A stretch of 32,000 bases of DNA from Candidatus Hermodarchaeota archaeon (GTDB lineage Archaea; Asgardarchaeota; Heimdallarchaeia; Hodarchaeales; Hodarchaeaceae), in the NCBI GenBank assembly GCA_048886185.1, contig JBHLKY010000018.1, positions 67,992 to 99,991 on the forward strand. The letters are read 5' to 3'. Positions 15,603 to 23,265 of the stretch are shown piece by piece. Below the pieces are notes generated by a model that was not told the DNA's origin, made no database searches, and worked only from the letters and a program-made list of their open reading frames with translations. A program made the position numbers and the translations under genes. How positions within the stretch are numbered: the stretch's first letter is position 1; every line of letters begins with the position of its first letter.

Positions 15603-16430
15603 TTATCTTTCCATCCGTGTTCTAAGAAGTATCTCTTTAATTCTAGTATAAAATCCATTAAATCGATCAATACTTCTAGAGTCAATCATTAATATTAATC
15701 CAAAAGTGATTAATATATTAGTAACCAAGAAAAATAAAAATTCTTCAATAGGTAACATTCCTGCTAGGAGAATCCCTGTTGATGTATTTATATTAATAGT
15801 CCAGACCCCCTCTCCAATGGCAATCGCATCTACAACAGCTAGATAAATTGTAGAAACAGATATGACTGAGATTAGGTCTCGTCTTGACAACCAGAGAATG
15901 TCAGCTCCATAGATCAACTGAATTATTATTGGAGGTATCCCCCACAAAAGTATTAAATTTAGATAAGTTAAAGATTCTATTTTGTTGATAAATATAATAA
16001 AGGAAACCAACCAAATAATAAAAAAACTCAATGACGAAATCAACCGTAAATTTTGTTTCAGATCATAATGATTGTCCTTATTTGTTTTCTGAAGCTGGAT
16101 CCATCCAAATATTAATCCTATTAAGAGAGTTTGGAATACAAAAAAGGCATATTCTTCAATTGGCACAAAACCAATTAAAATACCTATAATTTTCGAATTC
16201 TCATAATACCAAATAGCATTTTCAACGAGAAAATTATCCCATGGAGTAGTATAAGTAATGGCTACAACTATTAAAATCGTTAAAGCAATTAAGATTCTTT
16301 TTATCATCGTTTTCTGATTTTCTTCCCCTTCCTGATATTTTCTACGGTAAAGAATAGTGACAACCGCTAAAGGTAACCCAATAAAGATAAGGAGGAAAGT
16401 AAAATATGATAACACTATTTTCTCTTCCAT
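15603..16430 (-). CDS. crtY: Lycopene cyclase, heterodimeric CrtYc/d type fused as two domains
   Basis: TTPWDNFLV...IW.Y, GFVPIEEYAFF and a second copy VDAIAIGEGVW...LPIEEFLFF. Multi-TM. TAATG overlap with crtI. Confidence 0.88.
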   Translation of the reverse strand: MEEKIVLSYFTFLLIFIGLPLAVVTILYRRKYQEGEENQKTMIKRILIALTILIVVAITYTTPWDNFLVENAIWYYENSKIIGILIGFVPIEEYAFFVFQTLLIGLIFGWIQLQKTNKDNHYDLKQNLRLISSLSFFIIWLVSFIIFINKIESLTYLNLILLWGIPPIIIQLIYGADILWLSRRDLISVISVSTIYLAVVDAIAIGEGVWTININTSTGILLAGMLPIEEFLFFLVTNILITFGLILMIDSRSIDRFNGFYTRIKEILLRTRMER

Positions 16431-18013
16431 TAATTGAAATCGCTATTGCTAGAGTTTTTCTTCGAAGAAATATTTTTATATCTGATAATTAAATCTGTGG
16501 TTACTTTTGCACTGGAAACAACACCAGGTAATCCTGCTCCTGGATGAGTTCCAGCACCCACTAAATAGAGACCATCAATGTCTTCAGATTTGTTATGTGG
16601 ACGGAACCACGCTGATTGAGTAAAAATTGGTTCAACAGAAAAGCCAGAACCTTTAAAGCTATTATAATCTCGTTCAAAATCGAGTGGAGTTAAAATTCGC
16701 TCTGTAACTAAGTTCTCTTTTAGTCCAGGGAGATAATTCTCTTCAAGAAAATCAAAAATTCGTTGTTTAAATGGTTCAGCCATTTTTTCCCAATTAATAC
16801 CAGAATCTAGATGAGGGACTGGAATCAGAATGTAAAAAGTTTCATGTCCTTCAGGTGCTAAACTTGGATCAGTTCGAGTGGGGAGATGTAAATAGCTGGA
16901 AAAATCTTCCGCTAAAATCTTTTTCTTGAAAATATCTTCCAATAATCCTTTGTAGCGGGGACCCAAAATAATTGTGTGATGTTTCATCTCTGGATATTGC
17001 TTTTTCGTACCAAAATAAATTACTACTAATCCCATAGAATATTTTGCTTTTTTATAACGTTTATCACTATTTTTCTTACGCCACTTGGCATCAATCATTT
17101 TTGTGTATGTAAAAGCTGGATCAGCATTACTAATTATAATTTTAGATGGATAAAAATCATTTGAAGTAGTGAAAACGCCTACAGCTTGATTTTTTCTGAT
17201 CTCAATCTTTTTTACCTCAGTATTCAATACAATTTTACCCCCAAGCTCCTCAAATAGGTCTGCTAACGCATTTACTAACACAGTTGTACCACCACGAGCA
17301 AACCAAACTCCAAATTCTTTTTCGAGGTATTGAATAAGGCTATAAATTGAAGGAACCGAGAATGGATTCCCACCAATAAGTAAAGGATGAAAACTAAATA
17401 CCATTCTGAGATTTTCATGTCTTATATACTTAGAGACAAAATTATAATTTGATCGATATGATTGCAGCTTGATAAGAGAGGGAGCTACTTTAAGCATAGA
17501 AGTGAACTTGTGAAATGGTTTAAATGATAAGTCTTTGAATCCTTTCTCGTAGATCGGTTTAACTGCTTTAAGCATACGTTTATATCCTTCTACATCTTCA
17601 GGACTTATTTTTTCAATTTGAGGAATGTTTTTATCTGGAGTGGAATAGTCAAAAAAACTTCCATCGTTGAAATGAATCCGGTAAAAGGGCTCCACAGGGA
17701 CTAACTTAACATAATCCTCCAATTTTCGATCAGCTAAGCTAAATAAATCCCTAAAGATGTCAGGTACTGTTATCACAGTTGGTCCTCCGTCAAAAATGAA
17801 ACCTTGATCTTTGAAGACTCTAGCTCGACCACCAACCTGATCTAATTTTTCTAACATGATAACATTATATCTACCCGTGGCTTGGAGTCGAATTCCAGCC
17901 GCCAATCCCCCAATCCCTGACCCAACGATAACTACGGGTTCGAGATTCGTTTCAAATTGTTTATGTTGAAACATCTGAGACTGTTTATCATGGTTATTAC
18001 TCATTTCTCGCAC
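16430..18013 (-). CDS. crtI: Phytoene desaturase (CrtI family)
   Basis: FAD-binding VIVGSGIGGLAAG, EK.DQVGGRA and FDGGPTVIT, with C-terminal LYLVGAGTHPGAGLPGVVSSA. Confidence 0.95.
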   Translation of the reverse strand: MREMSNNHDKQSQMFQHKQFETNLEPVVIVGSGIGGLAAGIRLQATGRYNVIMLEKLDQVGGRARVFKDQGFIFDGGPTVITVPDIFRDLFSLADRKLEDYVKLVPVEPFYRIHFNDGSFFDYSTPDKNIPQIEKISPEDVEGYKRMLKAVKPIYEKGFKDLSFKPFHKFTSMLKVAPSLIKLQSYRSNYNFVSKYIRHENLRMVFSFHPLLIGGNPFSVPSIYSLIQYLEKEFGVWFARGGTTVLVNALADLFEELGGKIVLNTEVKKIEIRKNQAVGVFTTSNDFYPSKIIISNADPAFTYTKMIDAKWRKKNSDKRYKKAKYSMGLVVIYFGTKKQYPEMKHHTIILGPRYKGLLEDIFKKKILAEDFSSYLHLPTRTDPSLAPEGHETFYILIPVPHLDSGINWEKMAEPFKQRIFDFLEENYLPGLKENLVTERILTPLDFERDYNSFKGSGFSVEPIFTQSAWFRPHNKSEDIDGLYLVGAGTHPGAGLPGVVSSAKVTTDLIIRYKNISSKKNSSNSDFN

Positions 18014-18100
18014 GTCTATTCCCTTAACAAATCAATGTGGCATTCATAATAAAGACTTTTTCAACTAAAAACCTATTTTCGAAAGGTATTTAAGTATTTA

Positions 18101-18129
18101 TTCATGAAGTTGATTTGATTCATGAACTG
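18101..18129. promoter_or_regulatory. Candidate operator in the crtI/crtB divergent promoter
   Basis: TTCAT(18101-18105)-N16-ATGAA(18122-18126), which is also two ATTCATGAA copies 18 nt apart. It lies just downstream of the TATA-like TTTAAGTA relative to crtB. Confidence 0.6.
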
Positions 18130-18146
18130 TTAATGGGTAATTTAAA

Positions 18147-19091
18147 ATGTATTCAACTCAAAACACAATCGATTGGGGACTTTATCCAAAAAATATGATA
18201 ACTAAATACAGTTTATTGGATAAAACACTTGAAGAAAGCTATCAAGTCTGTTTAGAGTGGATGGCAGAGCATAGTAAATCATTCTATTTTGCTAGCCGAT
18301 TTTTACCTGAAGATCAACGTAAAAGTGTTGCTGCTCTCTATGCTATTTGTCGATTAAGCGATGATATAGTTGATGAAGCTCCAGAGGGAGTCACCATTGA
18401 GCAGATTAATTATGAACTTGATCAACTGAAAAATACTATTACACAATTGGCCAATGGATATAGTTCTACTAATCCAATTCTTCATGCATTTGGAGATACC
18501 TTGCGTCAACATCAAATTCCAGTTCATTACATGCATGAGCTTATAGAGGGTGTGAGAATGGACCTTATAAAAACCGAGTACTATTCAGAGGTTGAACTCG
18601 ATTTATACATGTATCGGGTTGCAAGTACTGTTGGTCAAATGATGACTCACATCTTTATTAGAAATCCAGCGAAACAAACACTAGCAAGAGCTGCAGATCT
18701 AGGTAAAGCAATGCAATTAACCAATATATTAAGAGATATTAAAGAAGATTTCCTAAAGGGGCGAATATACCTTCCACAAGAAACTCGGAATGACTATCAA
18801 GTTACCGTTGAGGATTTAAGATCTGATAAAGTTAATGAGAACCTCAAATCACTAATTCGTTATGAATCTAGAAGAGCAAAAGCTTTCTATAACATAGCTG
18901 AACTTGGTATTGAGGAATTACCCCCTGCAGGAGCTTATACGGTAAAAGTTGCCTCAAGAGTATATGGGGAGATTCTTAATGAGATAAAGCGACGCAAATA
19001 TCAAGTTTTAAGTCAACGAGCGGTTGTTTCTAAACTAAGAAAAATCATTCTAGCTACTAAAGTACGTTTAGAATATGTACAAAAACTTTAA
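18147..19091 (+). CDS. crtB: Phytoene synthase
   Basis: HSKSFYFASRFLP, LYAICRLSDDIVDE, YRVASTVG and AMQLTNILRDIKED..GRIYLP. Confidence 0.95.
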   Translation: MYSTQNTIDWGLYPKNMITKYSLLDKTLEESYQVCLEWMAEHSKSFYFASRFLPEDQRKSVAALYAICRLSDDIVDEAPEGVTIEQINYELDQLKNTITQLANGYSSTNPILHAFGDTLRQHQIPVHYMHELIEGVRMDLIKTEYYSEVELDLYMYRVASTVGQMMTHIFIRNPAKQTLARAADLGKAMQLTNILRDIKEDFLKGRIYLPQETRNDYQVTVEDLRSDKVNENLKSLIRYESRRAKAFYNIAELGIEELPPAGAYTVKVASRVYGEILNEIKRRKYQVLSQRAVVSKLRKIILATKVRLEYVQKL

Positions 19092-19125
19092 GCAGTTCAT
19101 AAAATAACAATACGTCATGAACAGC
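19092..19125. promoter_or_regulatory. Second copy of the candidate operator, upstream of the B12 regulator
   Basis: GCAGTTCAT-N16-ATGAACAGC (8/9 arm match), with the same TTCAT-N16-ATGAA geometry as the site at 18101-18126. Confidence 0.55.
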
Positions 19126-19157
19126 TTCAAGAAATCCTAGAATGGACGCACCGCCCT

Positions 19158-20099
19158 ATGGAAAATACTCAATTACCAGCAAGAGATCGCATATTTCGAT
19201 ACTTAAGAAAAAATCGCGGAAGAGAAGTGCCTGCTTCTGAGCTCGCATCTCGCCTAGATCTCAAACGTTCAACAATTTCTAACGCCATAAAGGAACTTAA
19301 TCTACTTGGATTAATCGAAATCGAACGACGTCCACTTAAGCGAGGGCGATATACAGTAATATACTTGACTGAAGACCTAATAAAAGAACCGTACATACAT
19401 AAGAATGAGATATTGAAGAGAAAAAAGGAGTCTAAAGAGCGAAGAAATGAGGAAATATCCCCTTTCTTTGAATCAGCTACCATGGCTGATACAATTAAAT
19501 ACCTTAAATCCCCTAATTATAACACTGAGGAGTTTTTTATAAAAATTGATTCAATATTTACTGATAGGATCTCTCTTATCACTGATTTTATAACCCCACT
19601 AATGCATGAGGTCGGTGAACAATGGGCTCGAACAGATCTTTCAACAGCTGAAGAACATGTTATTTCTAATCGAATTATCCAGCTTATCGATGCAAGAATG
19701 CCAACAAATGATAATATAGAAAAAAAAGGCCTCGTAATATTAGTACCTGTAGAAGGGGAAAGACATGTCATAAGTTTATTGGCCTTAGAATATATTCTCC
19801 GAGATTTAAAATATAATACCATTAATCTAGGTCGCGCATTACCCGTTGGATCATTAATTCAATACATCAAAACCCTTCCAATGTTACCTGATTGGATTTT
19901 TATGTCCGTTACCCTTCCCACATATCTTGGAACAATTAGACGAAATTTGGAATATTTATATGATAATTTTAATGATCAAATTCGTTTTGCTGTCGGTGGG
20001 CAGGGAATTTCAGAGAATGAACGCAATTTATTTCCTGAAGCGGATGTTGTGGCCATTAATAAAGAGGATTTAATGAATTTTATTAAAATACTTAGATAA
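19158..20099 (+). CDS. CarH/LitR-type cobalamin-binding transcriptional regulator with an N-terminal winged-helix domain
   Basis: N-terminal HTH (ASELASRLDLKRSTISNAIKEL...GLI). W-x9-E-H motif (19623-19658). E-x-H-x-x-S at 19758-19775 (canonical ExHxxG). LGRALP, MSVT and GGQG of the B12 Rossmann domain. Adjacent to crtB. Confidence 0.88.
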   Translation: MENTQLPARDRIFRYLRKNRGREVPASELASRLDLKRSTISNAIKELNLLGLIEIERRPLKRGRYTVIYLTEDLIKEPYIHKNEILKRKKESKERRNEEISPFFESATMADTIKYLKSPNYNTEEFFIKIDSIFTDRISLITDFITPLMHEVGEQWARTDLSTAEEHVISNRIIQLIDARMPTNDNIEKKGLVILVPVEGERHVISLLALEYILRDLKYNTINLGRALPVGSLIQYIKTLPMLPDWIFMSVTLPTYLGTIRRNLEYLYDNFNDQIRFAVGGQGISENERNLFPEADVVAINKEDLMNFIKILR

Positions 20100-20157
20100 A
20101 CGATTGACTAAGAGTTTTTTTGATGTTTCACTGAATTATAATTAGAATTACTTGGTT

Positions 20158-20448
20158 TTAAGGAATAAATTTGGTCATCTCAATTAAATGCCTCTTTAAT
20201 CTCTCCAAATCAATAACCATCAGATCCAACATGGCTAATCTGGCTATAATAGCATAAAGATCTGGCTTTCGAGGATCGTCATTTGTTTTGAGTTTAACTT
20301 CCCAGAGATTACGTTTTTCTTTGTATTTTGCAACTAAATCTACTAATTCGTCAATTATTTTAGGAATTTTCTGCTCAGTTGCATAAATACTAACTGACTC
20401 ACTACTTTCTTTTAGTTCTTTACTTTTAGACATCAAATTTCTACTCAT
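20158..20448 (-). CDS. Small hypothetical helical-hairpin protein
   Basis: 96-aa ATG ORF with amphipathic helices and no competing ORF. Confidence 0.6.
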   Translation of the reverse strand: MSRNLMSKSKELKESSESVSIYATEQKIPKIIDELVDLVAKYKEKRNLWEVKLKTNDDPRKPDLYAIIARLAMLDLMVIDLERLKRHLIEMTKFIP

Positions 20449-22929: not shown

Positions 22930-23265
22930 ATGTTCCATGACAACTCTGAATCAGATGCTAGTTCTGATATTCCTGAATCAAAAATTATCAGTGATCCGTC
23001 CACTGTTCCAGTTTTATTCCATGAAAAAAAGCAGATGATACTCAATTTATTGCTTGAAAAGGAGTTAAACATAATGGAATTGAAACAAGAAACAAATTTA
23101 AACCCTGGAACTATCAAAAGATATCTTGATGACCTTGTTTCGAATGATTTAGCTTTTCTTTCTCGAAAGGTACAAAATGAATATGGTTTTTTTCTTAAAT
23201 ACTACCGTGCGACAGCAAAATCCTTTATTATTCATATCGAGTGGCCATCAGACGTTCCGATTTGA
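22930..23265 (+). CDS. ArsR-like winged-helix transcriptional regulator
   Basis: KKQMILNLLLEKELNIMELK...NPGTIKRYLDDLV...KYYRATAKSF. Starts 20 nt after the upstream membrane gene. Confidence 0.85.
   Translation: MFHDNSESDASSDIPESKIISDPSTVPVLFHEKKQMILNLLLEKELNIMELKQETNLNPGTIKRYLDDLVSNDLAFLSRKVQNEYGFFLKYYRATAKSFIIHIEWPSDVPI

Follow-up and report, generated by a model that had tools for sequence, protein, structure and literature searches.

A predicted cobalamin-binding winged-helix regulator in the carotenoid gene cluster of a Hodarchaeales archaeon, and its probable role as a light switch

The stretch of DNA analysed here, called the window in what follows, comprises 32,000 nucleotides (positions 67,992 to 99,991, forward strand, of contig JBHLKY010000018.1, assembly GCA_048886185.1) of Candidatus Hermodarchaeota archaeon, an Asgard archaeon of the order Hodarchaeales. 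Next to the phytoene synthase gene crtB, it encodes a regulator of 313 amino acids (aa) that joins a winged helix of the MarR/ArsR style to a cobalamin-binding domain with the sensory signature of the B12 photoreceptor CarH. The protein is probably a light switch for pigment synthesis, archaeal and so far undescribed. The reading that we favour, and hold to be likely, is that of an adenosylcobalamin (AdoCbl)-dependent repressor, acting in the dark on crtB and on its own gene, and released by light. Cobalamin binding, light sensitivity, a switch in oligomeric state, binding to a pair of TTCATGAA boxes in the crtB promoter and the negative sign of the control are what we infer from the sequence, its homologs and structure models.

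The cobalamin sensor domain

The regulator gene and its parts are as follows:

19158..20099, + strand: regulator gene, an open reading frame (ORF) of 313 aa comprising winged helix, linker and CarH-type cobalamin-binding domain
19176..19373, + strand: N-terminal winged helix-turn-helix (wHTH), residues 7-72 (Pfam, predicted secondary structure, conservation)
19374..19481, + strand: charged linker, residues 73-108, predicted to be disordered (predicted local distance difference test, pLDDT, <50 at residues 88-106)
19482..19697, + strand: helical-bundle subdomain, residues 109-180 (Pfam B12-binding_2; G153-x-x-W156, E166-H167)
19623-19658, + strand: W-x9-EH codons, W156-x9-E166-H167 within the motif WARTDLSTAEEH
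19725..20096, + strand: Rossmann B12-binding subdomain, residues 190-313 (Pfam B12-binding, invariant columns, Foldseek)

An earlier note, made from the letters of the window alone, had read in this ORF the CarH sensory signature, a Rossmann B12 domain and two residues that deviate from CarH, and had proposed a profile search as a check. All of this is borne out. W156-x9-E166-H167 and E201-x-H203 are present, and in an alignment of 31 family members, 34-73% identical to the protein of the window, W156, E166, H167, E199, E201, H203, S250 and T252 are invariant, with P229, G280 and G281 near-invariant. W-x9-(E/D)H occurs in 49/49 family sequences. As for the profiles, Pfam B12-binding_2 matches residues 139-178 above its cut-off (24.7 bits for 23), as do the helix-turn-helix (HTH) families given below, while B12-binding is matched under its own. 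The deviations, a Ser at the Gly of ExHxxG and an Ala after the Trp, are both real.

Light-responsive cobalamin-binding domains have been defined by the elements GxxW, EH, GxxH and GxxxP (Yu et al. 2024, PMC11796333). The regulator has all four, in this order: G153-E-Q-W156, E166-H167, G200-E-R-H203 and G225-R-A-L-P229. The Rossmann part thus contributes G200-E-R-H203 and G225-x-x-x-P229, and further S250-x-T252 and G280-G281; H203 (codon 19764-19766) is the candidate lower axial His. Set against the motif D/ExHxxG/P-x41-SxT/V-x22-27-GG, the elements E201-x-H203, S250-x-T252 and G280-G281 are conserved, with x27 before GG. There are two departures from it: Ser at the G/P position, so that ERHVIS reads E201-x-H203-x-x-S206, and a spacing of x43 in place of the classic x41.

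The AlphaFold2 model (pLDDT 85.6, predicted template modelling score 0.76) is made of the winged helix, a bundle at residues 109-180 and a Rossmann domain at residues 192-312, in agreement with the domain that the earlier note had recognized; bundle and Rossmann domain are predicted to pack on each other in a CarH-like fold. Its top Foldseek matches, with E ~1e-8 to 1e-9, are photocobilins, AerR, the cobalamin-binding domain of Thermus thermophilus CarH (TtCarH) and CtMerR, and against the cobalamin-binding domains of TtCarH and CtMerR the target TM-score is ~0.7 at a probability of 1.00. The top sequence matches in the PDB are of the same kind, namely the photocobilins 8j2y and 8j2w, CtMerR 8jbs and TtCarH. 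W-x9-EH aligns with its counterpart in 8j2y, 8j2w and 8jbs. At the aligned positions it is missing in MttC and 4jgi, and in the methyl-transfer corrinoid proteins and MetH to which the family profile was aligned.

Two copies of the sensor (residues 105-313) were also predicted as a homodimer, with a score of 0.69 (best control 0.15) that passes a mark reached by 20/30 proteins solved as same-chain pairs vs 1/23 single chains, and which may reflect memory of the solved CarH/CtMerR complexes, hence indicates likeness and is not proof. At least 90% of the contacts agree among runs, and the pLDDT of the partner is at least 87. In the predicted interface the EH helix (162-184) is set against the GxxxP loop region (220-242) of the partner copy, an arrangement that would match the head-to-tail geometry of CarH and CtMerR.

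What do the two deviant residues imply? Across the family the position of the ExHxxG Gly is filled by Ser, Asn, Ala, Pro, Val, Thr or Gly, and PDB alignments place Ser there in photocobilin 8j2y and Ala in CtMerR 8jbs. After the Trp, validated photoreceptors have Tyr, Arg or Gln (PDB alignments; PMC11796333). Both residues being within the range of validated photoreceptors, they count against a bis-His light state only; light sensing as such is not called into question. To judge from its sequences, a CarH-style bis-His state is therefore unlikely in this family. Another residue might take its part. His81 (codon 19398-19400), in a YxHxxE motif where the linker begins directly past the wing, is invariant; apart from those of the EH and lower-ligand motifs, no other His of the homolog alignment is. 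His81 might serve as the light-state cobalt ligand, and in that case photolysis would be coupled directly to the DNA-binding domain.

The winged helix, its candidate operators and the carotenoid cluster

At the N-terminus the earlier note had placed a MarR/ArsR-style winged helix, not of the MerR type, joined to the sensor by a charged linker, and it had set the gene within a carotenoid cluster. These claims stand. Over residues 7-59 three Pfam families exceed their cut-offs, HTH_11 with 34.4 bits (25), MarR_2 with 30.6 (27) and HTH_20 with 29.0 (27), and the DNA-binding matches in NCBIfam are of the ArsR, Lrs14 and Sta1 types; no MerR model of either collection matches at E<=0.01. The solved sequences nearest to this domain are the C-terminal wHTH of CodY, MarR and ArsR/SmtB, none of them MerR. 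In the AlphaFold2 model, helices at 8-18, 26-33 and 37-49 are followed by wing strands at 53-60 and 63-70, that is, the three-helix bundle and beta-hairpin wing of a MarR/ArsR-like domain, and residues 88-106 of the linker are disordered. The homologs share the start Met of the window's regulator. In the 31-member alignment the recognition helix TISNAIKEL (~37-49) and the basic wing RRPLKRGRYTV are near-invariant, from which an invariant DNA target is predicted; this agrees with the invariant DNA box found upstream of crtB.

The elements around crtB, and the neighbouring genes, are these:

18101-18108 and 18119-18126, no strand assigned: candidate operator O1, two 8-bp palindromic TTCATGAA boxes (conservation, genome-unique pair)
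18089..18094, + strand: TATA-like TTTAAG, in TATTTAAGTATTT, starting 12 nt before box 1, its position kept in most orthologous promoters
19096..19121, no strand assigned: candidate auxiliary operator O2, TTCATAAA-N10-GTCATGAA, in the gap that separates crtB from the regulator gene
18147..19091, + strand: crtB, phytoene synthase (SQS_PSY match, 1.5e-75)
16430..18013, - strand: crtI, phytoene desaturase, divergent from crtB (TIGR02734, 596 bits)
15603..16430, - strand: lycopene cyclase, both of its domains of the CarR/CrtYc-d type, the gene overlapping the stop of crtI (TIGR03462, 2 stretches)

The binding region proposed in the earlier note, 18014-18146, thereby narrows to the candidate pair at 18101-18126. 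The two boxes of O1 are 18 bp apart, start to start, in the crtI-crtB intergenic region, 21-46 bp upstream of the crtB ATG, with 20 nt left between the second box and the ATG. A pair at 18 or 19 bp with at most one mismatch is found in 15/15 orthologous promoters, the surroundings of which diverge, and three divergent contigs have 3-6 boxes at variable spacing in the same crtB promoter. In nine Asgard crt clusters that lack the regulator, the crtB promoter contains no exact box. Because the flanks, aTTCATGAAsT, are non-palindromic, each box appears to be one copy of a directly repeated unit whose core is palindromic. The 4.84-Mb genome has 299 copies of TTCATGAA, the crt pair being the only perfect one at a spacing of 18/19 bp. 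When one mismatch per box is allowed, a genome scan at these spacings finds 22 pairs vs ~18 expected; with the crt pair alone perfect and the others near expectation, no regulon beyond crt is claimed.

The TTTAAG at 18089 would be the promoter element of crtB, itself presumably the first gene of a crtB-regulator operon. The boxes then lie between TATA and the expected start, where archaeal repressors usually bind (activators usually bind upstream of the TFB-recognition element (BRE)/TATA), and it is for this reason that the protein is called a repressor. O2 is specific to a clade: conserved boxes around a variable spacer are confined to the 4 closest genomes. Pairs of the quality of O2 occur genome-wide at chance frequency, and it is position and conservation that speak for it.

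Some members of the family, of ~366-420 aa, have a second winged helix added at the N-terminus, whose identity to the first is 46-57% (a tandem duplication), and two boxes at 19 bp are kept wherever the promoter of such a member was recovered. Elsewhere in the host genome (contig C40:20249-20272), three boxes in tandem, TTCATGAA TTCATGAA TGCATGAA, come after a TATA-like TTATATA, ~45 bp upstream of a gene for an ArsR-HTH + GyrI-like/Cass2 regulator, after which comes a GNAT acetyltransferase gene. They resemble the boxes of one divergent crtB promoter, and could be either a second target or the own site of an unrelated regulator.

The association with carotenoid genes extends well beyond the window, in which crtB, crtI and the two-domain lycopene cyclase adjoin the regulator as judged by Pfam and NCBIfam. 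An exhaustive hidden Markov model (HMM) search of 1.84 billion representatives returned only 17 proteins at E<=1e-30, the small family itself; W-x9-EH is present in 128/132 of the proteins that come next beyond it. The named homologs are from Asgard metagenome-assembled genomes (Hodarchaeales, Heimdallarchaeota and similar), with one exception labelled Methanobacteriota/Euryarchaeota, and this fits the Asgard origin at which the earlier note had guessed. DNA runs that contain the locus are sediment and estuary metagenomes, and for 17900-20200 no RNA run was listed. Within the phylum, 17/400 genomes have a match, and the carriers belong to two tool-defined genera, g1 (14/21, the genome of the window excluded) and g16 (2/4). 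The order crtY<crtI< / >crtB>regulator is found in 15/15 genomes with usable contigs, with regulator identity down to 30%, and in three further metagenome contigs (3/3) crtB is directly upstream on the same strand. Homologs not linked to carotenoid genes had been named beforehand as a refutation; instead, the regulator directly follows crtB in 18/18 loci. The genes linked at these loci are carotenoid genes only, with none for B12 transport or metabolism.

Within g1, the genomes with an ortholog of this crtI are much the same as those with the regulator, two exceptions being cut by contig ends; genomes that are missing the crtI ortholog or the regulator are missing both. Many other Asgard lineages have crtB-crtI clusters without the regulator, their CrtI being 50-55% identical. 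The host has a second CrtI paralog (contig C5:195542-197029), 54% identical, which resembles the CrtI of these regulator-less lineages; the 7.5 kb around it hold no crtB, regulator or boxes. A regulator at the crtB-crtI operon of Kariarchaeum (PMC12137139) was considered and is unlikely, nine other-Asgard crtB-crtI clusters being without a homolog. Within the window, a further regulator ORF, of 111 aa and the ArsR/HTH_5 type (22930-23265), lies 2.8 kb 3' of the regulator between multi-pass and large membrane proteins, and no tie to crt was seen there.

A proposed dark repressor and the alternatives

In the mechanism that we propose, the regulator would be a transcription factor dedicated to the crtY-crtI / crtB-regulator cluster, with adenosylcobalamin as its chromophore. 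In the dark, AdoCbl-loaded sensor domains would pair head to tail, as in CarH, and this pairing would set the winged helices on the two TTCATGAA boxes between TATA and the expected crtB start. With the boxes occupied, the recruitment of RNA polymerase would be blocked, and crtB and the regulator gene repressed. Green or near-ultraviolet (near-UV) light would break the Co-C bond, the oligomer would loosen or rearrange and the protein would leave the DNA, turning carotenoid synthesis on, for photoprotection or for the supply of retinal. It is possible, if rather less than probable, that we have here the more far-reaching case of a green-light switch working on the archaeal, eukaryote-like apparatus of TATA-binding protein (TBP), transcription factor B (TFB) and RNA polymerase, in which a B12 photosensor joined to an archaeal winged helix has a light-state chemistry unlike that of CarH, His81 perhaps replacing CarH His132, and by which Hodarchaeales-type Asgard archaea sense light.

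The host genome, 96% complete, offers a suitable context. A CobA-type cob(I)alamin adenosyltransferase gene adjoins those of the large and small subunits of methylmalonyl-CoA mutase, an AdoCbl-dependent enzyme, so that AdoCbl is made and used; an adenosyltransferase of the PduO type was not found in this genome. On a contig other than that of crt (C2:211046-218514), uvdE and a DNA photolyase gene abut, the photolyase start coming directly after the uvdE stop, and a heliorhodopsin gene follows ~4.4 kb beyond the photolyase, the operon and the heliorhodopsin gene of this UV/light island lying within 7 kb of each other. The UvdE-photolyase operon and the heliorhodopsin imply that the organism meets light. 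A single perfect TTCATGAA after TTTAAAG, ~105 bp before the photolyase gene, is probably there by chance, as it falls within the 3' end of the uvdE coding sequence and is not paired with another box; the region upstream of the heliorhodopsin gene has no box. Searches for Bac_rhodopsin (PF01036) and beta-carotene dioxygenase (PF15461) were silent, and uninformative, since their controls were silent too.

A number of observations weigh against light-released repression and have to be set beside these. The Pfam B12-binding match (residues 192-304) reaches 27.4 bits, under the gathering cut-off of 32.1. The family profile scores CarH at ~25 bits vs ~35-39 for methyltransferase corrinoid proteins and MetH; generic similarity and PDB profile scores do not separate photoreceptor from methyl-transfer domains, and it is the W-x9-EH motif that would decide. 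The assignment to the CarH/photocobilin type is accordingly one of motifs, fold ranking, sequence neighbours and context. His after Trp was found in 0 family members (Ala in the window's protein), and the TtCarH variant H132A does not monomerise after light (PMC11796333); as that variant stays assembled, the disassembly step of CarH cannot be copied here. Neither CbiB nor CobS was found in the genome. The host is thus probably a cobalamin scavenger, and the switch would depend on imported cobalamin, dark repression needing external B12. Dark repression by Myxococcus CarH likewise needs external B12. With regard to the operator, there is no conserved box near the crtI side in the clade of the window, the repressor position would be fixed by the one TATA-like box, and the nine Asgard crt clusters without regulator, whose crtB promoters have no exact box, belong to genomes of higher G+C. 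Finally, the related genomes in which order and boxes recur are non-independent samples.

Some of these points would suit a protein that answers, in the dark, to the availability or chemical state of cobalamin, so that crt would follow B12 status and light would play no physiological part: the apparent dependence on imported cobalamin, the missing bis-His residue, and an overall similarity to non-photoreceptor corrinoid proteins as high as that to CarH. We nevertheless consider such a sensor unlikely. The linked genes are those of carotenoids, not of B12 transport or metabolism, and carotenoid genes are a classic output of light protection. AdoCbl bound in such a pocket is intrinsically photolabile. 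W-x9-EH, the cap over the adenosyl group and the mark of domains of the photoreceptor type (PMC9304148), is invariant here. Independence from B12, with the cobalamin domain retained for dimerisation or another ligand and any light signal arriving by another route, has its precedent in Myxococcus CarA (PMC9304148), and could invoke the variable Gly of ExHxxG together with the Pfam B12-binding score below threshold. In CarA, however, the Trp of W-x9-EH is gone. The present family keeps the W, E and H of the motif, and the lower-ligand His with them, without exception down to 34% identity, and validated photoreceptors, too, do without the ExHxxG Gly: this makes a CarA-like protein a very unlikely explanation.

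The sign of the control might be the reverse, the light-state or monomeric form binding the boxes and recruiting the basal machinery. Some archaeal winged-helix regulators do activate, and the number and spacing of boxes vary in the divergent loci; yet in the 15 orthologous genomes the boxes are downstream of the TATA-like element, over the expected start site, and all CarH homologs characterised so far are dark repressors (PMC9304148), which renders activation improbable. That a methyl-transfer corrinoid protein of the MtbC/MttC kind was fused by chance to an HTH is what one would think of when several homologs are labelled 'methanogenic corrinoid protein MtbC1' by the Joint Genome Institute (JGI), and when TIGR02370 is the top NCBIfam match. 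Its 33.6 bits are, however, far below the cut-off of 215.3, MttC has no W-x9-EH at the aligned positions, and the loci examined have crt genes as neighbours and no methyltransferase nearby. A conserved DNA-binding domain with matching promoter boxes points to a regulator, and leaves the chance fusion hardly credible.

Comparison with known systems

The AdoCbl-dependent dark repression proposed here brings the regulator close to CarH/LitR of Thermus thermophilus, Myxococcus xanthus and Bacillus megaterium, which are AdoCbl photoreceptor-repressors of carotenogenesis. With them it has in common a two-subdomain sensor (the W-x9-EH bundle and a Rossmann domain with its His lower ligand), the predicted head-to-tail dimer, a gene inside the presumed target carotenoid cluster, repeated boxes over the promoter and probable autoregulation. 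There are also differences. A MarR/ArsR/CodY-like winged helix stands where CarH/LitR have MerR; the presumed target is an archaeal TATA-dependent promoter, in an Asgard host; there is no His after the Trp, and the ExHxxG Gly position is variable. The operator of TtCarH consists of tandem 11-bp direct repeats, the candidate operator of the regulator of 8-bp palindromic cores 18-19 bp apart. The NF052513 model (TransRegCarH) gives 30.6 bits vs a cut-off of 400, over residues 140-240 only; with a score so far below the cut-off and no MerR domain, the regulator falls outside the CarH/LitR family.

CtMerR (8JBS) and the photocobilins SasPcob/AbDPcob (8J2W/8J2Y), which are experimentally light-responsive (PMC11796333, PMC10979010), have the four signature elements in common with the regulator, as well as a residue other than His after the Trp and Ser or Ala at the Gly, and they are its best PDB matches in sequence and fold. 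They are bacterial, with the sensor joined to MerR, or to biliverdin-binding and diguanylate-cyclase domains; none is archaeal, none has the winged helix of the regulator and none is tied to TTCATGAA boxes. AerR of Rhodobacter capsulatus (7TE2), a cobalamin-binding antirepressor, has a similar fold (Foldseek E 1.2e-8) and takes part in the light-dependent control of pigment genes, but, unlike the regulator, it is devoid of a DNA-binding domain and acts through CrtJ. AerR binds photolysed hydroxocobalamin via an upper-ligand His that lies outside the canonical motifs. CrtR of Corynebacterium glutamicum also places a MarR-like winged helix at a carotenoid cluster and represses crt; by contrast with the regulator, it responds to isoprenoid pyrophosphates and is devoid of a cobalamin domain (PMC5401885).

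That light-responsive cobalamin domains are reused as modules, coupled to 'HTH' outputs, is on record in a general way (PMC11796333). The main text and supplement of that study (Yu et al. 2024, PMC11796333) make no mention of archaea, MarR or winged helix, and its signature network of 1561 sequences may include the present family under 'HTH'. In the literature we found no paper on an archaeal or Asgard B12 photoreceptor, on this winged-helix fusion or on a TTCATGAA operator. To our knowledge, B12-based photoreception has been shown experimentally in bacteria only.

If the reading is true, there would be direct genetic evidence that Hodarchaeales-type sediment archaea meet light and respond to it, in keeping with their photolyase and heliorhodopsin genes; Hodarchaeales-type Asgards, among the closest known relatives of eukaryotes, would sense light and regulate their pigments accordingly. 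It would also give us a natural cobalamin photoswitch on a promoter of the TATA/TFB type. We know of no genetic tools for this Asgard group, and the group now has a concrete candidate operator-regulator pair that can be put to the test. The system is small, amounting to one 313-aa protein and an 8-bp box that recurs at 18-19 bp, and its DNA-binding module is orthogonal to that of CarH, which makes it a candidate part for green-light optogenetics.

The closest sequence neighbours of the Asgard family form a second non-MerR family, of ~280-300 aa, where a small N-terminal domain (KGxxYxYLV...KYLG) is fused to a cobalamin-binding domain with W-x9-EH intact. In JGI metagenome contigs its genes adjoin not crt, but genes of argininosuccinate-lyase-like proteins and succinate dehydrogenase.

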